A stretch of 63,961 bases of DNA, counting the filler, from Intoshia linei (Eukaryota > Animalia > Orthonectida), in assembly GCA_001642005.1 (NCBI GenBank). It is 6 parts of 6 records of this genome, joined end to end, with 100 filler letters (N's around TTAATTAATTAA, not from the genome) between each part and the next. Parts side by side here need not be neighbours in the genome. Positions count along the whole stretch, not along the records: positions 40,952 to 54,697 come from LWCA01000999.1; 5 more parts are not named here. One strand, given 5' to 3'. Below the pieces are notes generated by a model. It saw only the letters and a list, made by a program, of their open reading frames with translations, made no database searches and was not told where the DNA came from. A program made the position numbers and the translations under genes. Numbering within the stretch: position 1 is the first letter of the stretch; each line of letters opens with the position of its first letter. This document shows positions 28,599 through 63,961 of this stretch, piece by piece.

Positions 28599-28698
28599 NN
28601 NNNNNNNNNNNNNNNNNNNNNNNNNNNNNNNNNNNNNNNNNNTTAATTAATTAANNNNNNNNNNNNNNNNNNNNNNNNNNNNNNNNNNNNNNNNNNNN
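28599..28698. other. Assembly gap with six-frame-stop linker (also 40852-40951, 54698-54797, 61253-61352, 62715-62814)
   Basis: N-run + TTAATTAATTAA + N-run, the same at five sites. Confidence 0.95.
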
Positions 28699-29300: not shown

Positions 29301-29731
29301 AAAATTAAAATCTTGGTTATTTATTTGAATCCATTTTTTTGTTTATAGAATTTTATTATATAATTAATAAATAGTAATGTTATAAATTTGATTTGAGTCG
29401 ATTAGAGTTTAATATACAAGAGAAAACTAAAGAATAACATAATATTACAAATATGGTTCCATGTTGGTCATTGTAAACTTATCATTTATTAAATATATTT
29501 ACACTACCAATATTTATTTGGTGAACACATTTAAAATTATTACTATATTCTATTTAAAAAACAAAAAGTTTCATTAAACAGTAATGTAAGAATGAACGAA
29601 ATTTAAAAAAAATTCATATTAAAAATATCTTACCATAATAAAGCATTATTGGTATTATTCTATATATAACATTAAAGGTAAATTTACTATATGCATTTTC
29701 AATATTTATATAGACATTAGCTATTTATAAA

Positions 29732-31519
29732 ATGTGCGCACATTTTATATTTACTGACATGTCGTCAATTTCAAGTGGTTATGGATCTCAATTAATTTCG
29801 ATAAACGAAAGTCATAGATTATCTAAAAGTGAAACCAATTTGACGCATCTTGATTTAGGACTGGGTTCAGAGTTTTATATAGTTAAAAAAAGGAAAGCTG
29901 GCGAAAAAAATAAATCTAAACGAATCAATATGATCTACTATCAAGATTCGGCAGCAGAATTGAATACAGCATATCAAGATATTAAATATTTACATTGCAA
30001 ATTTGATAAAAGTTTCTACAAAAACTTAAAGTTACAAGGTCAATCTATTGAATTACCAGCTCCAAAAATAAAATTGTTAAATGAAACTGTGTCTAATAGT
30101 GCTACCTATACAGAACGTCAGGTAGAAATTTCAAAATACATTAAAAAACGAAATATGGAGATAAACAGATTAAAATCAGCTTTATTTGAATCTGCAAAAA
30201 ACATTTATAATAGTAGTATCAAGTACTCTTCCAATAATAACATAGATGAGTATTTTCAAGAGTTTTTGAATGAATATGAAAATATGATTGAAAATGAATG
30301 GTTACTTCATAATATCAAATTAAATAAGCTGGAACAATTGTATGATAGCCTTGAAAATAACTACGAAAGTATTCAAGAAAATTACTTAAAAATGCAAGAA
30401 AACTCATCTCTTTTTAGACAACCTTTAAATACTCTCAAGAAAGATATTAAAAAAAAATTGAATCAAACCAAATTTATTGTAGACAAATTAATGGAATCTT
30501 TAAAGCCAAAAAGTGAACAACAATTTAAAACATTTGAAAATAATGCAAAAAATTTGACAATCTTAAAAGAAAAATTTACAAAGTATAAACAAATGTTTCA
30601 ACCAATGATCAAAAAATTTGTAGATGTTAATTTAAGTCGAAGCAGTACAGTTCGAGTTAAACGTCGCATCAATTTTTCCAAAACTAATAAAATCAATTGT
30701 AATAAGGAGGTTGTTAAACCAAAATCTTTAATAAAGTGTCAAAGTCAAGGATCATCAGATCTGAACAAAGAAATAAACATAATTAGAAAAAACAATAACC
30801 GAGAAATTGTAGATGAAATTAATGTAAAACAAACAATGGTTAAAAAAAGGAATTTAAATGTACCTTCACTCTCTACCCTACAACATATCAAAAAGAGGAA
30901 CCATTGTAAATTAGAGACTCTTACAAATATCAATAGTAATGATAATTACATGGAATCGACACGTTCTAGCAAATCAGAAACAATTTCAAATAATGATAAT
31001 GTAGTTATCAACACTACCATTAAAAATATAAACAATACTACTAATCCTTTAAAACATGTTCAATTTAAATTTGACATTTTTTTAAGTACTTTTTTATCTT
31101 TAAATAAAATGGATACCAAAATGATTATTGATGAATTTACGAAATCAGCCGTTTATTTCGATTCAATTTCTATGCTTTCTACTGAAATATCTATCCTTCA
31201 AGATAATATTTTGGGAAGTCATGAATATTTTACCAAAATTAGACAAATTATTGGCACCTCACAAGCAATTGTCAATTCAATCAAACAAATGTATTCAAAA
31301 GTTCTTGCTTTGAATGTCAGACAAATATTTATAAAAATTTCAAACATGATTCTCAAAAAAATTCAAAAAATTATTTTAATTACCAATGATATTTCATCAA
31401 TCAAAATGCTCCCTACTACAGTTGTCATTAATCACAGAGTTCAGGTTACCAATTTTTGTATGGAAATATCTAGCATTTACAGTGTTTTTAAACGGTTAGA
31501 AATTTCAAATTGTCTTTAA
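29732..31519 (+). CDS. Intronless 595-aa coiled-coil protein; C-terminal helical bundle resembling the CAS/FAT-like domain
   Basis: 1.8-kb open frame in very AT-rich DNA; heptad-rich middle; C-terminal pattern NVRQIFIKISNMILKKIQKIILIT. Confidence 0.75.
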   Translation: MCAHFIFTDMSSISSGYGSQLISINESHRLSKSETNLTHLDLGLGSEFYIVKKRKAGEKNKSKRINMIYYQDSAAELNTAYQDIKYLHCKFDKSFYKNLKLQGQSIELPAPKIKLLNETVSNSATYTERQVEISKYIKKRNMEINRLKSALFESAKNIYNSSIKYSSNNNIDEYFQEFLNEYENMIENEWLLHNIKLNKLEQLYDSLENNYESIQENYLKMQENSSLFRQPLNTLKKDIKKKLNQTKFIVDKLMESLKPKSEQQFKTFENNAKNLTILKEKFTKYKQMFQPMIKKFVDVNLSRSSTVRVKRRINFSKTNKINCNKEVVKPKSLIKCQSQGSSDLNKEINIIRKNNNREIVDEINVKQTMVKKRNLNVPSLSTLQHIKKRNHCKLETLTNINSNDNYMESTRSSKSETISNNDNVVINTTIKNINNTTNPLKHVQFKFDIFLSTFLSLNKMDTKMIIDEFTKSAVYFDSISMLSTEISILQDNILGSHEYFTKIRQIIGTSQAIVNSIKQMYSKVLALNVRQIFIKISNMILKKIQKIILITNDISSIKMLPTTVVINHRVQVTNFCMEISSIYSVFKRLEISNCL

Positions 31520-38500: not shown

Positions 38501-39346
38501 ATTATCGGCAATACACTTTACATTATTAATTTTTTAGTTATTATATAACGAATATTACTTGTTCTCTGGTAACTTTGAAAACTTTCATTGTGAGAGCAAA
38601 CATGACAGCAAGAGGAATAAAATATGTTAAAATTGATACAATTAATACAAAAACTTTGTTTTTTTCAAAAATGCAGACATTATTAGAAATATCAATTTCT
38701 CTAGTGTTTTGAACAAATCCGTCTTCAGTATTCCATCCTGCAAAAATGGGAACAAATGCAAACATTATAGAAATAATCCAAAATCCTGTACAAAAAAGAA
38801 AAACTCGTTTATGATTGATGAGGCGTAAATAAATAAAAGGACGTGTCACAGCAAACCATCTATCTAGTGATATCGCAAATAGTGTTAATATGGAAGTAGT
38901 GCAAAGCATTACTAATATTTATTAAAGATTAATTAAATTTTTAAATAATTACCGTCAAGAGATATCCATATATTACAAAATACATTTCCGAGAAACCAAG
39001 GTTTAACTGACAGTGTTGATATGATACTGAATGGTAACACCAAAATTCCTAATGAAGCATCGGCCATAGCCAAAGAAAATACAAAATAATTGGTTGGAGT
39101 TTGTAAATGTTTTTCAAATATAATTGTTACACAGACCAAACCGTTTCCCAAAATTATTAATATTGTTATTAATACCAATAAAAAGCCTACAATTATTGAT
39201 CTAACAGTAGAAAATTTTGGATAATCGGATGTTTTTGGAATAGGTGTAGAAATATTTATTTGAGAAATTGATGTAGAATTGCAAGATGTTAGAGTAATAT
39301 TGATTATAATTATCAGAACAATGCTTTTAATTTTTAATTCCTTCAT
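35554..39346 (-). CDS. HRH2: Histamine H2 receptor-like aminergic GPCR, 4 coding exons
   Basis: [73 protein letters not shown]. Confidence 0.85.
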
Positions 39347-40951
39347 TTATTTTAATTTGCGTATAAATTTTTAAGAAGATGCAAATAAGTGTATCTAAAA
39401 TTGATATATTAAAAATGTATGAATTAAATTAAACATGTATCAAATACAATCCATCAAATATTTAACATAATTCATTGTGTAAATTTCATTGTCTCAATTA
39501 ATCAATAATATCCAGTTAAATTATCATCCTATATTTGAGTCCTAATAGTGTGCTTATTGTCGTATTAACTTAAATTGCAATTTATATACATTTACAAATC
39601 TTTAATGAGATTTTATTAAAGTAATATTATATGTTTTGGTAGCAACTTGGCTGTAAAATTTTACACTTTTAAATCAATACCATATTTTTGTCATTTGTTA
39701 TCCGGTTATTTAAATAAAACAATTGATTAAAAATTTATAGTCAATGATAATACTAATTATATATTCAAATATTGTAGCAGTGAGCATAATTAAATTCAAA
39801 AAAATTTAGTTTACGTCCTATATATTTTTTTTCATTTTAACGATTTCCATTGTCCATACTTTTAATTATGTGGTATTAAATTGAAATTGTTGAAATATTC
39901 ATTTTTATATTATTTAAATTTATTAACTAATATTCAATTAATTTATAAATGTAATGGTTTGATTCAAAAAATCTCTTAAACAGAGCATGGTATAGAATTA
40001 GATACATGTAATTTATGCAAGATATGTGACATGTATAATAAGTTTTATGAATATTTACATTATAATTACTATTATACTAATAATATAGTCAAGAGAAGTA
40101 GTTTCATTGTTGCTTGGACAATACGCAAACCTATCTGTCAGATATTCGATAAAAAAGTGACAAATTGATCATATTGATATGTTTTGATCTCAATACTAAT
40201 TAACTAAAATAGCCATAATTGAAGTAATTTTCAAATGTTATATGAACCATAATCGTTAAATTTAAGATAAAATTATATATACATTAATATTTAAAATAAA
40301 TATTTAGTATAATTTGAAGCCAATTAGTTATATAATGAGTTCATTAATAGGCACATTTTGTTTGTGTGCATGAGACTATTTTTAATTTTAAAATGTATGT
40401 TAATGATTAACATGTATCTCTGTTGTATTTCAATCCTATTTTACTAATCGCGATTATATTTTTCCATTCAATTTAAAGTAAATTGACCTACAATGTATGT
40501 AATATATTGTTATGATATAATACATTAAATATTAATGAAGTAGCTTTATTATATAATTAATAATGATACAAATTGGAAAGTCGTAAATTTTGGAAATTTT
40601 AATCAAATTTACGTGCATAAGTATATATGATATTCTTGTTGATATATATCAAGGGTTCCCAAACTCATTTTTCTTACCGCCTTCTTTTTAGCAATATATT
40701 TTATCAATAAAAAAATATATATCATATCAAAAATTTTTCGACTACGTTGTATATATTAATTACTGTCACTTTTTATATCAGTGGATCCAAAACTTTTTAT
40801 AAAAATATCCCCTTACAACCAAAAAATTCATCAACGCTCCACTCTATCCATNNNNNNNNNNNNNNNNNNNNNNNNNNNNNNNNNNNNNNNNNNNNTTAAT
40901 TAATTAANNNNNNNNNNNNNNNNNNNNNNNNNNNNNNNNNNNNNNNNNNNN

Positions 40952-41622
40952 AGAGAAGATGGACAAAGAATCATTGTAAGGTGTGCTAATAGAGTTAATT
41001 CTGTTGAATATATTAGGATTTTGAATAGGTATATCGATGAACTTCATAATACACGATATATTTTCCAGCATGATAGAGCACCAGGCCATAGATCATGAAT
41101 GACAAACAACTTTATCAAAAATAGATACCTAAATACGCTTGATAGTTGGCCCCCACAAAGTTCAGATCTCAATATAATTGAGCATGTATGGGGTATGTTT
41201 AAGATAAATGTTTCAAAAATTAAACCAAGAAATTTGGAACAACTTTGGACTGTTACAAGAGAAGAATTTTATAAAATACCCGATGAATATATCAAGAATT
41301 TATTCAAGTCTTTACCTAGAAAAATAAAATCTGTTATTGGTTCAAATGGTGGTAATACCAGATATTAACAATAATAAATTTCTTTTTTAATTTTTCTTCG
41401 AAAATGTTGCATTTGATTCAGAAGTGCCTAAAACTTTTGCACGGTCATATTTTAACAATTTCTTGTTTCCATCGTTTCTATGTACATTTTACATATTTTG
41501 TTAATCGACACATAATTATCTATGAATTTTAATCACTTGAACAAAATTTTAAGAAGATTCGACACATCGTTATATTAATATAGCCGTTTAAAGGGGGTTC
41601 CTAAAACGTTTGCACGGGTCTG
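40952..41622 (+). mobile_element. Tc1-family transposon 3' half with IR/DR-type right end
   Basis: FQHDRAPGH, WPPQSSDLNIIEHVW, SLPRKIKSVIGSNGGNTRY*; direct repeats cctaaaac.tttgcacgg at ~41427 and ~41600; ends ctg|TA. Confidence 0.9.
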
Positions 41623-42145: not shown

Positions 42146-42785
42146 ATATATGTAATAATACTTGTACAGTAGAATCTCTTTAATTTAAAGTCAATTTCAT
42201 TGAAATACTCTTCATTTTAAATATTCACATGTTCATTTTTATATGAATTTTATAATTGATTTTGAAAATATTTGAATTATTTTATTTACATTTTATATTA
42301 TTAATTAATTTTATTATTACGAAATTTTTTCATTTAAAATTTAGTGTCTCATAGAATGAATATTACTTATGATTTATTTAGTTAATCTTATATCTTATAT
42401 TAATTATCTTAGCTAATATTATAGAGAATTAAATCGTATCGTTGTTCGATATTCGATATATAATGATTTAGCTGCTGTTAAAAGTTATTTGGAATAAATT
42501 TACATTTATTTATTTTTATTAGTCATAAAAACGTCAAATTAAAAATTGTAAATAATCATTGAAGCAAACTTTATAAAACAGAATTATATGACAACTACTT
42601 GCTCATACTTAATATGAGGCTGTCATATTTGATACAGCACTGTCTATATTTGATACGAAAGTGAAATTTCAATATGATCAATTTATCTAGATATAACCAA
42701 GAAATATTCAATACATCGTTATAACTAAACTATAGTCTAAACTAAGTCGTATAAACTTTATTCTATACACAGTTACTACTTAATA

Positions 42786-43296
42786 TTGCTCACACACGCT
42801 ACAATGAATTTGAATAGAGCTTTGAATTTGGCGCAGGATTGGGAAGATGAAGTTGATCTAATTAATGAAACGGAATTAAATACAGTGGATAAGGTAGTGT
42901 CGAGTCCGATTTTTGATACGATGGACGTAAATGATAGTTTTTTAAGTTTAACCAACTTTACACGGCTGGAAATATTAACTTTATATCACCGATTTATCTC
43001 TGTCTATAACTCACACCGTAAATTTCATGTAAAAATTAATTTTTAATTTGTTCTAGCACTCGATTCATTATTGATGTATATGTTTTGAATTAAGACTAAA
43101 CACGTATCCAATTTTATGTAAAGTATTCTAACTAAAAACAACCGACACAGTCAAAAAACTCCTCGACCGTGTGAGATACCCTCTTTTGGAAAGTTTAAAA
43201 ATATAGTGGTGGAGCGACAGAAAATGGCCAGTGACAATAGAGGGTAGGTGGCCTCATGTCGATTTATTGGGAGACAACACAGATCGTTGAGTGGTT
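42786..43296 (+). mobile_element. Decayed Harbinger/PIF-like (DDE_Tnp_4) transposase N-terminal part
   Basis: LTNFTRLEILTLY, ALDSLLMY, LLDRVRYPL, LLGDNT (first catalytic Asp region). Confidence 0.5.
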
Positions 43297-43325
43297 CAAC
43301 ACAGATCGTTGAGTGGTTCAACACA
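43275..43325 (+). repeat. 22-bp tandem duplication, 2.3 copies
   Basis: caacacagatcgttgagtggtt x2 + caacaca. Confidence 0.9.
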
Positions 43326-43871
43326 CAAAGAAAGAAAAACCTTACAATTAATGCTATAGTTCCTGATTATGCATAACATGCAAAAGCAATGAACGAATAT
43401 TCTTTATAAATAAAACGCAACCCGAAACCAGATTTGACGCTTGAAGCCATGGAATCTTATAGGCGTTGCAGACAATAGTGTATCATGATAAAGACATCAA
43501 TGCTATATATTGCTCACAGTTTAAAGAGTTAAAAAGAAGGTGTTATATAGTTTGAAACAACATGTATTGTTATTTTGTGATTTATCACCAGATGGTTTTG
43601 GACGGAAAATTGATGTATTTGTTTGCAGGTGACGATTCAGTTTTGTCGAATTACTTGGAACACGTTGAACTCGATGTCTAAGTATGATAAGTCACAAGGG
43701 CTTTTGGCGATACACTATGATAGAATGATTATGAAATCTTTCGGGATACAAAAATATTATCGTGATTTGTGGTTTAATGGACATTTTTTAACAAAAATAT
43801 ACGATCCAACTACTAAGATAAAAGCATTAATACCTTTCCAACGTAAGTCTGGTGATGCTTCTACTTTTATT
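43326..43871 (+). pseudogene. Endogenous viral element: nege/virga-like (Martellivirales) RdRp fragment
   Basis: Across frameshifts: NEYSL*IKRNPKPDL, ALQTIVYHDKDINAI, ELD/SKYDKSQG (motif A), LWFNGH, KALIPFQRKSGDASTF (motif B). Confidence 0.9.
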
Positions 43872-45800
43872 TATTACTCTCAGTGAATTTCTACGTGGAT
43901 CAATCCCTATAATGGGTGGTACCCCTAAAAAATTCGACCCAAAGTTTCGTATATTCATTCGTCAAATCATTGACCTTCGTGCGCATCAATCCATTTTAAC
44001 CGACCTTTCTTCAAAATTACTCAAAGCCATCAACAAAATTCGAATTTAATGTTCTGGATTACAACAACGTGACATCAACGAAAGAGAAACCTCCCGATTC
44101 AAAACAATTCAAAGTATTTCGATATATCCAACTTTTGCGGCAGCATTAATTCGGGAATAAGAAATATGTTAAATCGTATTGTAGGATCAATGACTAGTGT
44201 AAACAAAGCTTTTCTTTGGTTATCCAAAATTTTGCGTATGGGCTTACTACAAGTCGTTTCACCCACTGTTCCAAACACTATTATCTCTAACTTTCCAAAT
44301 TCAATACCATTCACTATAGGAGCATTAAGTGTTCAACAGGGCATAAACCAAGCAGTCTGGTCTCTCCTTACCGTTGGTTTATCTTCACTTTGGTTAACAT
44401 GGTCTTATATGAGATGAAAGATATCGGAACCAGAATTGGTTTAGAACTTTCACTCAAAGAGTCCGTGTTCTCTATACTTAAAATTTTTTCGAATAATGAT
44501 GACAGTCCACTACAATTGATGGATTCCAACTCACAATGATGACAAAAGGTTTGGCACTCAACTTCCAAGATACTTTGGACACTCAGTATCTTTTTAGTTC
44601 TGCAATTAATGGAATATTGGAAAGAACCGCTAAGAGTAGTGCTTTTGAAACGGGACCACATCAAACGTAGTTCATGAATTGCTTACTGATCATTTATTAT
44701 TATATATTTGACATTCGTTTTTCTACTTCTTGGCATAGCCCTATACCTATTGAAAATTTATTGACCAATCATTTGGAAAATGTTGGAAAGAAATGAAGGA
44801 AGTGGAATCTGAACTTAGGAATACAACAGTGACGACCTGGAATATGAGTCTGAACTAGAGTGTGATGACATTGTTAAATTTTCAGATACCCTGCACTATT
44901 AGTGGTATTGGTTCGAAATGGACAATTGGTTCAACATGGAACTTGAACGCGCATATTTACACTACAAAACTGAAGGTACCCGAATCAAGAAAATAGAGTT
45001 TAATCAACAGTTTCTCAACATAAATAATATTACTGACACTAAATATAGAATTCTCAGTAGTCCTATTCTTTTCACGACTGTTTTCCAATTTCACAACGAT
45101 CATATAACCTCTACAAACCGTAATGTTCCTGGTTTTGGGGACAAAATTATCTACACATAAAATTTCATCAAATATGCTTAAACTCCAAATTCCGGGGGTT
45201 GGAAAAACCGTTTGTAGAGACCATATCTTTACTGACACTTTTGCTGTATGGGACGAGTCATTTAACGCCGCAAATGATAATTATTGCTATAATTTGCTGT
45301 CTCAGCATTTTGACACTTATGCTCACCAGAGTGTTTTTTAAGTGCTGACTTTCTCCAGATGGAGATACAAAATGGAGATGAGAGTGCATTCCCACTCAAT
45401 ATAGCTGATTGTCACTCAAAAGGTACTACTTTCTTCATGTCAGAATTTTTAGTTTGTACAAGTAATGTAGACCCTACAGAAAATAGCACTTCGTTTGGTT
45501 CAGTAATGGTCGACCCAATTGCTTTTTCGAGAAAACTCGATATTTGTGCAAATGTTGCACGTATAGGTTCCTCTAATCCCGTTTTTGACAATAATTCCAT
45601 TTTTTTTTTTACTATAAGAGTAGGAAAATGTCTAACTAAATTAACAGTACGCTTACAATTTTAAAATTCATTATCATAACTGAGAGAATTGAAAAAAGAG
45701 AATGCCATCACATTTGGTTCGTTATTCATAAACTATAAATTTGACAACCCGGAAATCGACACGTTAATAATAGACGAAACCTTTTATCTAAGAAATTAAA
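43872..45800 (+). pseudogene. Endogenous viral element: picorna-like nonstructural polyprotein with 2C/SF3 helicase (upstream limit uncertain)
   Basis: PGVGKT (Walker A), HFDTYAHQSV../ADFLQ (B), AFPLNIADCHSKGTTFFMSEFLVCTSN (C), DPIAFSRKLD; frameshifted. Confidence 0.8.
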
Positions 45801-45829
45801 ATCTGATTAAATAAAAGATGACAATTATA

Positions 45830-46330
45830 AAAAATGGACTATTATACTTAAAGATCAATATAAAAAACGAGTATTTTTTAGTTTATAAAATTAGGGAACT
45901 AAATTTTCCAATTAAATGGTTACACTGACCATTTTTAGCAAATTATACTCAGTCCTCTTTTTGCTATACCGAAAGAAAAATATACTTGTATCATCATCAG
46001 GAATCCCGATGCATGAATTTATTTAAGATCTAATAGATTTTTTTGAAGCTTATAATGATACAATGCCATCTGTATCAGCCACGAGAAACATCAAATATTT
46101 AAAAAATGTTTAGGTCACAAGAATAAAATGGATCGTTAAAAGAAAAAATATATTTATGGTAGTTGATGAGTCCCAAAGAAACAAATTTGGCTACTTAAAT
46201 ATCATGATTAGTTTATTTCGGATAGGGTATATGCTTTTAAATGTATACCTTCGCAGAATTCAGTTAATGCAAATTTTATGTGCACAGCCATCAATAATGT
46301 AATTCGAGAGTTATCAATAGAACGAAAAAA
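45830..46330 (+). mobile_element. Decayed hAT-related transposase fragment
   Basis: SSGIP..MPSVS, IFMVVDESQ..YLNIMI, SVNANFMCTAINNVIRELSIERKNF. Confidence 0.4.
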
Positions 46331-47089
46331 TTTCAGTTTTTTTTCAGTAATTGGGATTGCACCTGTGGTCAATGATAGGCAAAAAGATCTCTTGCAAAAT
46401 TTAAGAGATGTTTAAATGTCACTAAAATTGAAGAAGCATTGCAAAACCTAGTATGCACCATGAACAATATTAATTGAAATGAACTCATTTGGATTTTTTA
46501 TTATCTATGTATCATAGAAAAAATAAATTATATTATATTTGTATCTTTATAATTTAGATTCACTGTGATTCTACGCATTATTACATAACCAAGGACCATA
46601 TGAGCTTTTATCCAAAATATTTGTCAAAGTAAACGTTTTTTATATGCGATTCGACACACAATTTTAAACTGAGTTTGTATACTACAATATATTCTTCTAT
46701 AAATTGGTATAACGACTCTTTTTTACATACAATTTATTAAAATAATTTTTTCCTTTAAGATTTACGATAAATGTAAACGGTTGGCCCACAGCATTTAGTC
46801 GCCTCAGTTTTCGTAATAGTTCAATTTTTATTATAATATATAATAGGGAATAGTTTGTTTAAATAAGATAAAATTACGAGAAAAATATTATAATAACCAA
46901 ACACTTAAAATATGTAAATTAAAATTATATTGGGCAACCCCTCACAATAATTTAGTTAACAATATAATATTCAAATTTCCCTTTAAAATGTGGTATGAAA
47001 TTACTCATATAAATGGTCATATCTGCTAAATTATATGCAATTCATATTATGAATACATTGAATAAAATCATTACATTAATTTAAATATG

Positions 47090-47617
47090 AAGAGTTTTGG
47101 CGAGTTCGTGCCTGCAATGATCTCGACCCTAAAAACTCCGTAGAAGATCATCAGATGCTTTTAGACCAGATTGCATGGCACGAACGGTGAAATTTCCAAC
47201 TAAAATTATGGTTCAAGGAGCAATTAGTGTATCTGGGCCCGGCTCTATATTTGTTATAGAGGGTATAATAAACAAACATAAATATATTGACACATTAAAA
47301 AACTTTTTAAATGATCGTCCAAGTTTTCTAAAATATGCATGTTTTCCACCCGATTTGGTTCCATGTCATACATATTATAATATATAATATTCTGCACGGT
47401 CAGTTAAATATTTTTTTGATTCCAACCAATGGAAAGTATTACCCTGGCCCAATAATTCAGTAGATATGAATCCCATTGAAAACGTTTGAAAGGTATTGAA
47501 AGATGAAGTACATCATGTTCATATTTCGTCAAAACAAGAATTAATTGACCCGACAATATGGGTTTGAAATAATTTGGACAAAATTCAATTATTATGCAAA
47601 AACTTAATAATTGGAAT
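47090..47617 (+). mobile_element. Tc1-family transposase DDE remnant
   Basis: RTVKFPTKIMVQGAIS..GPG, DLVPCH, VLPWPNNSVDMNPIENV*. Confidence 0.85.
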
Positions 47618-54438: not shown

Positions 54439-54797
54439 CTAAAGTTAAAAATAAACATAGCATAATCTAGTTACTCTATTTATACGCACAAGCGGACAAA
54501 TTATAGTTTTTACACTAAAAAACTAAACAATATAGTACATAAAATTGTTCAGGGCTCAGAAAAATGAAAGAATTTTGATCTAAATCTTTGTATATAAAAA
54601 AGTCTAACAATCCAACAAAAAAATAAAAATTTTTTTATTCGATAATATATAAGATTCAGAACAAAGTTTACCTAAAATTGTGGCTATCGTTGAAAAANNN
54701 NNNNNNNNNNNNNNNNNNNNNNNNNNNNNNNNNNNNNNNNNTTAATTAATTAANNNNNNNNNNNNNNNNNNNNNNNNNNNNNNNNNNNNNNNNNNNN

Positions 54798-59481: not shown

Positions 59482-61352
59482 AATTAACATGAGCATTTTT
59501 AATTTGATTCAAAAAAGGCGTAACTACAACTATATGTTGCATAGAATGTGTCTTAGACGCCAATTCAGAGTTAGATACATAATTGATGCTTTGCTAACAA
59601 CGAATTTACCAATTGAGTTGGTCCAATTCAGTTAAATTAACAAGTTTATGTTTATTTTTAAATTGATAGATATTTGTAAAACTTTTATTTAATTAATATC
59701 AAACCATTTAATTACTATTTTTTTTGAACCAAACTTTCAAGAGGGGTTTTTAAGATTTTTAGAAAACAAAATAATTGATTAGTTATCAATGATTTCTGTG
59801 TCAAATATCGTGTTTCCAGTTATAAATTTTATATTTAATAAATTGAATTAATTATTTTTAATCTTAATAATATATCCTGCCTTGTTACGTTAATCTGTAC
59901 TGCATACTGTACGACTTATATACTAATTAAAAAATGTATTTTTGTATAGGATCTGTGCACATTTTAATAAATGTAATATGATGATTATAATTTATAATTT
60001 TACTCAGAAGAACTTACCACAGAGAGGGCTAGGGCCACATATCAAGCCTAAAATAATGATAACTACTATTTTAATTTATTAATACGTAATGTTGGGAAAT
60101 TTGTTATTTTAGGGACATTTTATGATGATCAATGCAATTTCAAACTGTTATTTTTGTTTTTTAGTCATTAACGATCGAGTGTACAATATATTAAATCAAT
60201 ACGAATATGTTTAAGTTTTGTAAAAAGTACTGAATTTTACTGAGTACTTAGTTTTACTTTTACTGAGTTATTGGATATTTTTTGTACTAAGTTTTATTTT
60301 TATTTAGTTTTTCTTTTTTGAACTGAGTTTCAAAACTCAGTACTTTTAACCATTTGAGTATTCGTTATTTCAAAATAAGACATGTTGTAAAATTTAATTT
60401 CTGTGTATTTATTACACAAGATAATTACATAATTTCTGCACTAATGTATGCATCGTGGATACATTAATGTATTTAAACTAAATTACAAAAAAAATTAGAA
60501 GCTAGTACAGCCTAGATTGTTTACATACTGAGTGGGTTAACTGTCTTAATTATCGCACAGGTTTTTATGATATTCAAATTCATCAATATTATCCATCTCA
60601 CTTATACGTTAAAATGTTAACTTTTAGGTCGCATTTTAGAAATTAAAAAAATACATGACCTTATGGTATGAGAAATACAATACCAATAACATGTAGTGTT
60701 GAATTCTAGGCTTGTTTTCATTTTTTAAATAAAGGGTAATCTGGGATTTTGATCGTGAAAATGAACTTCTTTGGTTTTGATAAAGAGATATTAAGTTGCG
60801 TGTCCGTTCACAATATCGTAAATCACATGATTGTAAATTCAAATGATCGTAGTCAAATGGATCGTAAATCAAAAGATCGTATTTATTTTGTTTAAGTTTA
60901 AATTAAATAATTCATTAACTAGGTCATTTAATTTAGACTACAGACCCAAGTTAAAACTGAAATATTAAGATACCATATTATACCCACAAACCATATTACA
61001 AAAAAAAAATAAAAATATTCTATGGTGTTCACACCATAGATTTTGTTAGTCATGTTTGCAATAAATATGGTCAATACAGAGATTCCATAATATACAAAAA
61101 TTTATTAGATATTTTTTGTTAAATAACTTTTAAATCATTTTTAAGTAGCACAAATTAAATTAATCTTTTACAATATATTCGGGAAATTTTTTTTCATAAT
61201 AATTGTATCATAATAATTCTTAATTGCACATTTGTCGATAATTATATTTAAANNNNNNNNNNNNNNNNNNNNNNNNNNNNNNNNNNNNNNNNNNNNTTAA
61301 TTAATTAANNNNNNNNNNNNNNNNNNNNNNNNNNNNNNNNNNNNNNNNNNNN

Positions 61353-62660: not shown

Positions 62661-62814
62661 ATCTGAATATCTAAAATTATTATAATTATTTCTATTCTAT
62701 AATGAAAATATTAGNNNNNNNNNNNNNNNNNNNNNNNNNNNNNNNNNNNNNNNNNNNNTTAATTAATTAANNNNNNNNNNNNNNNNNNNNNNNNNNNNNN
62801 NNNNNNNNNNNNNN

Positions 62815-63430
62815 GTCTTCTAATCTATATGTACCCGGTCCAATAACTTCAACAATTTTTAATGGATCCGACATAGAATATCCCTTTAATTGCGGACGAC
62901 CCACCTATACATAATCACCAATTGTTAAATGCCTTTCTTTGGTTTTATCATTTTCAATCAATTTATTTTGACATTTTTGTACATTCCTTCTGGCAATAAG
63001 TTCTGCCTGCTCGGCACTCACTGAACTAGCTTTCAATTTGCACGACAATCGAGTTTTCAGACTACTGTCATGTAACAATTGCGATGGAGATACTCGCGTA
63101 GTTGAGTGGGGAACAGCTCTATACATTATTAAAAACCGATTTTACATCCTTATTTTCTTTTACACCAATTCGCAATTTTTCTTTAACCGTTTTAGTGAAC
63201 CTTTCTACCAATCCGTTACATTGAGGATGGTTGTTTGAAGTGTACCTTGGTGTAATACCACGTTTATTCAACAAATTTCGCCATTGTTCCGATTTAAATT
63301 GGGTTCCATTATCCGACAAAATAATCTTTGGCAATTCTTCCCGTGCGAAGATATCTTCCAGGAATTGCAGAATAACTTCCGTTGTAGTATCTTCGACTAA
63401 TTTAAATTCAGGATCCGTTGATATTGACAT
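62815..63430 (-). mobile_element. Ty3/gypsy integrase remnant
   Basis: LPKIILSDNGTQF, HPQCNGLVERF, YRAVPHSTTRVSPSQLL, GPGTYRL. Confidence 0.9.
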
Positions 63431-63961
63431 TTTTGATGCTGTATGGAATTACAATTTTTATATTTTTACTCTATCCCATATCTTGACAGTAGCTTCCAAA
63501 TTTTTACCGATAACGTAGATAACACAGAAACAACGGAATTGTCATTTATTTTCACTAATTCTAACTCTGTGGAGTCGTAGGTACCCATAGCATGTTCAGA
63601 GTATCCACGTTTACACTTCTTAGCATCACGGTTTGATTTTATGGGACTAATGTAACTACTACGGTAATTTACTAGTCTGTTTTCTCCAATAGTACCTAAT
63701 AAATTTTTTTTCTTCTCTGTATTTATCTACTAAATCTAGAACGGTGGCTGCCATTTTTGACCTATTTTATTACATTTTTAACAATCTTGAGTTGTTTATC
63801 TAAAGTTTTGTTCAATAGATTACAATAATTGTAAAAATTTAATTTTTATCGTAATATCTTTATTTTATAAACTAAATAAAGTGATCTAAATATTAGGTCG
63901 TTTTTTAAACAAAATTAAAAAGTTTATTTGATTACATTAAAAATAAAGTTATATTATAAAA

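Follow-up and report, generated by a model that had tools for sequence, protein, structure and literature searches.

Remains of two, likely three, RNA virus phyla in a decaying composite endogenous element of the orthonectid Intoshia linei

The locus and its genomic setting

Orthonectids are highly reduced marine parasites, and Intoshia linei is an orthonectid parasitic in marine worms. The stretch of its genome analysed here (assembly GCA_001642005.1; 63,961 nt with filler), hereafter the window, represents AT-rich animal DNA with short exons and includes a rhodopsin-type receptor gene at 38541–39346. Assembly filler occupies the 100-nt gaps at 28599–28698, 40852–40951, 54698–54797, 61253–61352, and 62715–62814, in the form of a 12-nt spacer (TTAA repeats at 40896–40907) with 44 Ns on either side. 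The gap-free contig at 40952–54697 contains relics of Tc1, pogo-like, and MULE elements. It also holds a mosaic consisting, in this order, of a coding-like lead segment, a nege-like RNA-dependent RNA polymerase (RdRp) fragment, a middle piece that is likely part of a negative-strand virus L polymerase, a further coding-like stretch, and a picorna-like helicase fragment. Elsewhere in the window, an uninterrupted frame of 601 codons without a Pfam match was found at 29714–31519 (plus strand) in otherwise intron-rich surroundings, and an rve integrase relic, probably of an LTR retrotransposon, lies at 63122–63448 (minus strand). Between the mosaic and a Tc1-like relic there is a high-copy non-coding repeat (46525–47130), which reaches a summed depth of up to about 230–350 in sequencing run X1.

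Run X1, which probably represents DNA and may be the source of the window itself, provided a single contig of 3154 nt that spans the mosaic from 42532 to 46023 at a depth of 14.7, with the neighbouring flank contigs at 8.6–12.7. Compared with the window, this contig lacks a 22-nt tandem duplication present at the 5′ edge of the RdRp fragment (43275–43318), carries 29 additional bases near 43018, and shows seven single-base differences. It also joins 45155 to 45501, indicating another haplotype in which a 345-nt stretch with most of the helicase core (45156–45500) is missing, and retains the helicase sequence at 45501–45616. Since the viral homology continues beyond 45501, the 345-nt skip would be a deletion from an older, longer copy, i.e., the derived state. 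Run X2, which belongs to another study, yielded five pieces with 99–100% identity apart from one indel; one X2 contig bridges position 43872 without differences, and X2 shares with X1 the 29 additional bases and two single-base differences. No contig of runs X1–X4 covers 45156–45500, a stretch carried by the assembly of the window alone; locus bins without cover in X2–X4 are uninformative.

In genomic data, namely the assembled contigs of two studies, decayed viral sequence adjoins host DNA, as expected of a non-retroviral endogenous viral element (nrEVE). An assembly chimera or contamination, with co-sequenced pieces of the host animal or of viruses joined during assembly, would agree with the absence of the helicase core from all X1–X4 contigs and with X1 possibly being the window's own source. 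We nevertheless consider it very improbable, because the pieces contain stops and frameshifts, unlike live viruses, because the X1 contig runs from flank to flank and includes helicase sequence, and because the separate X2 study reproduces five pieces almost identically, with a contig reaching across the first junction.

The public annotation places three gene models (P0022, P0009, and P0002) over 42804–45157. Two gene models over the mosaic correspond to the I. linei hypothetical proteins A3Q56_06057 and A3Q56_06058, and P0022, named an alsuviricete RdRp protein, joins the lead segment, the RdRp fragment, and the middle piece as exons. Our analysis exposes all three as likely prediction artefacts, and it is likely that no viral protein is made from the mosaic. 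A one-line remark in the accessible text of PMC6396948, that the I. linei proteome holds an RdRP of a viral family, may refer to the gene model over the RdRp fragment.

The helicase fragment and its relatives

A preliminary description had presented 43872–45800 as a single endogenised picorna-like nonstructural region with a 2C-type SF3 helicase recognisable by five motifs. All five motifs were recovered, over two adjacent frames: PGVGKT (45192–45209) and HFDTYAHQSV (45306–45335) lie in a single frame, and the next frame holds ADFLQ (45344–45358), FPLNIAD...CTSN (45389–45466), and DPIAFSRKLD (45512–45541), a frameshift splitting the helicase between 45335 and 45344. Walker A, the Walker B region, motif C, and the arginine-finger region thus follow one another in order. 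The search with PF00910 that had been suggested as a check matched both frames in order (profile positions 7–66 at E 0.032 and 68–105 at E 0.003–0.015), each match scoring below the gathering score. A profile of the six closest viral helicases, run against the six-frame translation of the window, detected the two halves at E 5e-19 and 3e-26, with the next-best site at E 1.3. Taken together with the relatives and the tree described below, these matches support the identification of an endogenised Picornavirales-type SF3 (2C-like) helicase. The extent claimed for it did not stand: viral helicase homology covers only 45189–45616 (plus strand), i.e., about 140 codons or about 430 nt rather than 1.9 kb, and the tail (45617–45800, plus strand) has a GC content of 0.28 and no viral match.

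The search for relatives with phmmer, using one helicase frame with stops read as X against 1.84 billion representatives, returned 18 matches, two of them I. linei's own gene models. PF00910 was present in all 16 non-self matches and RdRP_1 in 11, and a Rep, NS1, or AAA family occurred in none. The best relative is an unnamed picorna-like polyprotein of 2453 aa (P0003), to which identity amounts to 63% in the Walker A half (52 aa) and 49% in the remainder (100 columns); relative to it, the element's copy has a 12-residue gap after Walker B and reads ADF in Walker B itself, where P0003 has SDF. In a quick tree of 32 rows, the element was sister to P0003 (SH-aLRT 93), joined P0004 (95), and fell inside the group of the named viruses (86), which comprises Beihai sesarmid crab virus 2, Cryptolin calicivirus 1, Sphaeripse virus, and Beihai barnacle virus 4. 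This tree leaves out P0013, whose Walker A is off-pattern, and both helicase trees of this study were built by a quick method with no bootstrap. Beihai sesarmid crab virus 2 and Cryptolin calicivirus 1 also form one clade in the accessible part of 10.1101/2025.06.19.660416. Around Walker A and Walker B, the element shows the sequence that is specific to the clade of Beihai sesarmid crab virus 2. In contrast to these viruses, it is short, frameshifted, and embedded in host DNA, and the protease, polymerase, and capsid of the same picorna-like virus are absent, the homology ending at 45616. Because the piece is a fragment, its family rank cannot be fixed by the RdRp. A word-seeded protein search gave nothing for the helicase half, and an exact-peptide search for helicase-related loci produced 11 candidates, none of which was confirmed.

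Two proteins of Neoechinorhynchus agilis (P0006 and P0015, on chromosome-scale contigs of 16.4 and 19.4 Mb; accessions KAL7671869.1 and KAL7674655.1) are short annotated proteins with helicase pieces of the same clade and form sister rows in the tree (97). They are probably endogenous elements in an acanthocephalan, which hints that this helicase clade infects parasitic worms widely. Two further picorna-like polyproteins, P0018 and P0012, carry C2H2 zinc-finger (zf-met/jaz) domains.

Other helicase classes, which the preliminary description had named as refuting cases, were rejected. The piece scored 5.6 bits on a CRESS-DNA Rep profile (72 distinct Reps) vs. 72.4 bits on a picorna-like profile (22 helicases), and shuffles of the full piece reached 8.5. 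The picorna-like set and the 30 picorna-like loci collected here were chosen by the window's own motif, which makes the matches in motif B'–C circular; the Walker A half is independent of this choice and by itself scored 14.7 bits on the picorna-like profile vs. 1.9 on the CRESS profile. The spacer from P to KG has 8 residues in the element and 5 in 62 of the 72 Reps, and in a tree the element fell with the picorna-like helicases (SH-aLRT 100), where its branch was long. Profile, spacer, and tree together exclude a CRESS Rep. For parvovirus NS1 and cellular AAA+ proteins, no such family appeared in Pfam at E up to 0.5 or among the phmmer matches; their exclusion follows only from absent Pfam and best matches.

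Sequences upstream of the helicase

The RdRp fragment (43296–43877, plus strand) belongs to the nege-like part of the alpha supergroup and matches PF00978 at E 1.5e-16 and 6.7e-6. It is frameshifted over all three frames, and its homology stops just past motif B. Its motifs follow the permuted order C-A-B: the GDD precedes motif A by 13 codons. The three closest of 80 viral loci (L013–L015; 60–62% identity) have the same spacing, and among 44 loci checked they alone have the GDD before motif A. One of them, L014, carries the nege-like DiSB-ORF2 and SP24 genes. A permuted RdRp order has been described for the Sandewavirus and Centivirus groups, according to the accessible text of PMC8045340. 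The C-A-B order is common to these nege-like viruses and the locus, which differs in holding only a fragment, placed here by motif order and best matches.

The coding-like lead segment (42804–43290, plus strand), in which both X1 and X2 carry their 29 extra bases, by eye resembles what we take to be the N-terminal part of a Harbinger/ISL2EU transposase. No credible match was found for it in Pfam, NCBIfam, or plasmids.

The 1.3 kb between the RdRp fragment and the helicase (43872–45188) had been described as less AT-rich, coding-like, and frameshifted; its GC content is 0.35 vs. 0.23–0.26 in two measured flank stretches, and the plus frames contain 15–32 stops each, none being open throughout. 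Its assignment to a 2B-like region of the same virus did not hold. A single picorna-like nonstructural region over 43872–45800 would agree with the common strand and the similar GC content, and 1.3 kb would fit the 300–460 residues that precede Walker A in the relatives. The 260 residues before Walker A are, however, conserved: a profile of them recovered all six left-out relatives (80-aa pieces, E 4e-10 to 2e-23), and the same profile found nothing in 43872–45188. Whole-polyprotein tblastn with the picorna-like relatives was likewise empty at E 0.05. We therefore regard a single region as extremely improbable, and the null result of the profile favours the fallback of the preliminary description, an origin of the upstream part from another source.

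When 50 viral proteins were compared with the upstream segment by tblastn, the two matches obtained were weak and came from L polymerases (E 0.003 and 0.049, with a very small database). The middle piece (43872–44475, plus strand), broken by several frameshifts, is likely a core fragment of a Mononegavirales-like L polymerase without motif C, as suggested by its motifs F-like (43924–43998), A-like (about 44121), B (44334–44372), and D (44432–44464). In pattern scans for look-alikes of motif B, viral sequences gave 4 and 70 loci and metagenomes 87; the only relevant one is an artovirus-like L (L250), and none of the scan loci matched the middle piece beyond motif B. Motif profiles were derived from 26 usable sequences among 28 relatives of L250, mostly artoviruses. 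The motif B profile ranked 44334 first of 127,840 positions, a circular result given that L250 had been picked through motif B. The motif D profile ranked 44432 first of 127,852; this site lies 100 nt downstream of B on the same strand, and its rank is independent of the family choice, though D was first spotted by eye. At positions chosen by eye, the F, pre-F, and A profiles gave ranks of 159, 217, and 2479, i.e., the top 0.12, 0.17, and 1.9% of ~127,850 positions. By eye, moreover, the middle piece shares R, F, Q, R, and Q of motif F in ungapped spacing with the solved L chain 9q3a_A, and both it and 7yer_A have D, F, W, V, and P at +30, +32, +44, and +50.

The middle piece resembles Mononegavirales L proteins (Artoviridae P0023–P0049 and the solved chains) in the sequences of motifs B and D, in the order F-A-B, and in similar spacing (A to B, 79 codons vs. 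74–81; F to A, 58 vs. 64). It differs from them in the interval between B and D, which is 27 codons vs. 59–72 and thus about 32 codons short. The catalytic motif C (GDN), expected ~30 residues past motif B, is absent from the piece, and we consider its region to have been deleted. There is also no PF00946 match in Pfam, and no close relative was found: the viral and metagenome contigs were empty, a search for loci related to the middle ORF gave 71 candidates with none confirmed, and a word-seeded protein search with this ORF retrieved nothing but I. linei's own gene model. For four pieces of the window, comparison with PDB sequences yielded chance matches only, and the ESM Atlas provided no usable match. 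Tests with the whole L profile depended on motif B. The hhalign result was 44–49% with this motif and 0.4% without it; with motif B masked, the frameshift-aware score was 17.2 (median of 94 control windows, 16.4), and the chain score of 18.55 was beaten by 4 of 188 controls. Once motif B was masked, the L identity failed all three of these unbiased tests, none reaching significance. A single-sequence fold of 44115–44414 consisted of two helices (pTM 0.31).

A second X1 contig (1278 nt, depth 14.1) aligns to the middle piece at 43921–43970 (7 differences in 50 positions) and 44187–44231 (6 in 45) with nearly the same spacing, so that the middle piece has a diverged second copy elsewhere. This contig, with its single-copy-like depth, could hold a better-preserved piece of the source. 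Three wasp genome proteins (P0028, P0034, and P0044, from Mischocyttarus and Polistes) represent artovirus-like L fragments, one of them with PF17917/PF17919, presumably RNase H types of retroelements.

Alternatively, the mosaic may derive from two viruses, the middle piece being the glycoprotein gene (ORF2) of the nege-like virus itself, moved beside the RdRp by an internal deletion. A hydrophobic ORF2 does sit behind the RdRp in nege-like genomes, and ORF2 profiles from three and five relatives had their peaks in the window at 44001–44258 (E 0.2 and 0.11). Neither match is significant, however; the hhalign score of 12.9 was below that of shuffles (up to 19.1), no PF16506 match was found, and an ORF3 (SP24) profile of 11 relatives detected nothing behind the middle piece. 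As this origin also leaves the first-ranked L motifs B and D unexplained, we regard it as improbable and retain the L polymerase as the likely identity of the middle piece.

The coding-like DNA that follows (44476–45188, plus strand) has the same GC level and no Pfam or NCBIfam match. From 44777 onward, the comparison with 1.84 billion representatives matched I. linei's own gene models alone. This stretch may continue the L gene or represent a further source.

Origin of the mosaic and comparison with known elements

Overall, our analysis identifies the locus as a composite endogenous viral element that is decaying and that combines sequences from two, likely three, phyla of RNA viruses. RNA viruses require a reverse transcriptase for entry into DNA. 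In the scenario that we favour as somewhat probable, the reverse transcriptase of a host retroelement would have copied viral RNAs while switching templates, and the resulting chimeric cDNA would have been inserted into the germline and then subjected to neutral decay. The outcome would be the arrangement seen today: within 2.3 kb and on a single strand, a piece of a nege-like polymerase is followed head to tail by one that is likely from a negative-strand polymerase and by one of a picorna-like helicase. The GC content is 0.33–0.37 across the pieces and 0.23–0.26 outside, with no AT-rich, host-like spacer between them. All pieces lie in coding sense on one strand and are cut at or beside conserved motifs; the RdRp homology stops just after motif B and that of the helicase begins with the Walker A loop, which is what truncation would be expected to leave. 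We also count the LTR-type integrase relic at 63122–63448 in favour of a retroelement origin. In Aedes, LTR elements supply reverse transcription, and recombination gives rise to composite nrEVEs (PMC8048955, accessible text).

No retroelement sequence adjoins the mosaic, and a search for a target-site duplication revealed just AT-rich shared words of 8–9 nt, both of which weigh against the joining step. Some 50 nt around the first junction and some 700 nt ahead of the helicase are not assigned, so that direct fusion is shown by composition only, and three pieces would share one strand by chance in 1 of 4 cases. Deletions are common at the locus (345 nt, ~12 codons, the motif C region), and later deletions could therefore equally have closed gaps between separate insertions. 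Viral cDNAs might thus have been inserted one by one at a transposon-rich trap site, which may resemble a piRNA cluster and produce antisense small RNAs; subsequent deletions would then have joined them. The Tc1, pogo-like, and MULE relics within 10 kb would agree with such a site, and the accessible text of PMC8048955 describes piRNA clusters of Aedes that hold more than 10 nrEVEs of different families. Yet no spacer of host composition survives, the scaffold is gene-dense, with the receptor gene ~3.5 kb away, and the Tc1-like relics read on the mosaic's own strand. Sequential insertion is a serious but less probable alternative, and we continue to favour a single chimeric cDNA formed by template switching.

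The most specific form of this scenario is tentative: one reverse-transcription event in an orthonectid germ cell may have brought the RNA of a permuted nege-like, an unclassified negative-strand, and a calici-like picorna-like virus, i.e., of three phyla, and perhaps a transposase transcript, into a single cDNA. If so, the locus would directly document that three viruses infected the same cell together, and this in a phylum from which our searches retrieved no described virus. The negative-strand piece, with its diverged second copy and no close relative in the searched collections, would then mark an undescribed lineage. If the pieces were joined before insertion, they would document compact template switching across virus phyla outside arthropods.

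The mosaic identifies two, likely three, lineages of RNA viruses that probably reached the orthonectid germline, and it likely preserves, in fossil form, past infections of a little-studied group of animals, presumably of the parasite itself. With it, a new phylum is added to the hosts of the permuted nege-like viruses and of the clade of Beihai sesarmid crab virus 2. In the literature, with subscription papers mostly outside the search, we found neither this locus nor any three-phylum fusion described. Nor was any account of orthonectid viruses found beyond the line in PMC6396948, although PMC11097642, which sampled Orthonectida, may list some.

Picorna-like nrEVEs are already known, e.g., TgEVE3/TtEVE3 of horseshoe crabs (PMC12282059, accessible text). 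They appear to be a rarer kind, which fits with the absence of picorna-like elements among the classified elements of Bombus in the accessible part of PMC12922265. Like TgEVE3/TtEVE3, as these are presented in the accessible text, the element described here is a fragment of a picorna-like nonstructural polyprotein in the genome of a marine invertebrate; it differs in its viral lineage, its orthonectid host, and its position within a multi-virus mosaic. With the composite nrEVEs of Aedes aegypti (PMC8048955, accessible text), the locus has in common adjacent pieces that are non-contiguous in their source, stops and indels, and presence–absence polymorphism. According to the same text, however, each composite of Aedes is assembled from a single virus, and different families are mixed in piRNA clusters that lie amid LTR elements, whereas the mosaic of I. 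linei unites two, likely three, phyla over 2.3 kb and is not adjoined by an LTR element. In conclusion, the kind of element is known, while its host lineage and its tight mosaic structure are unusual.
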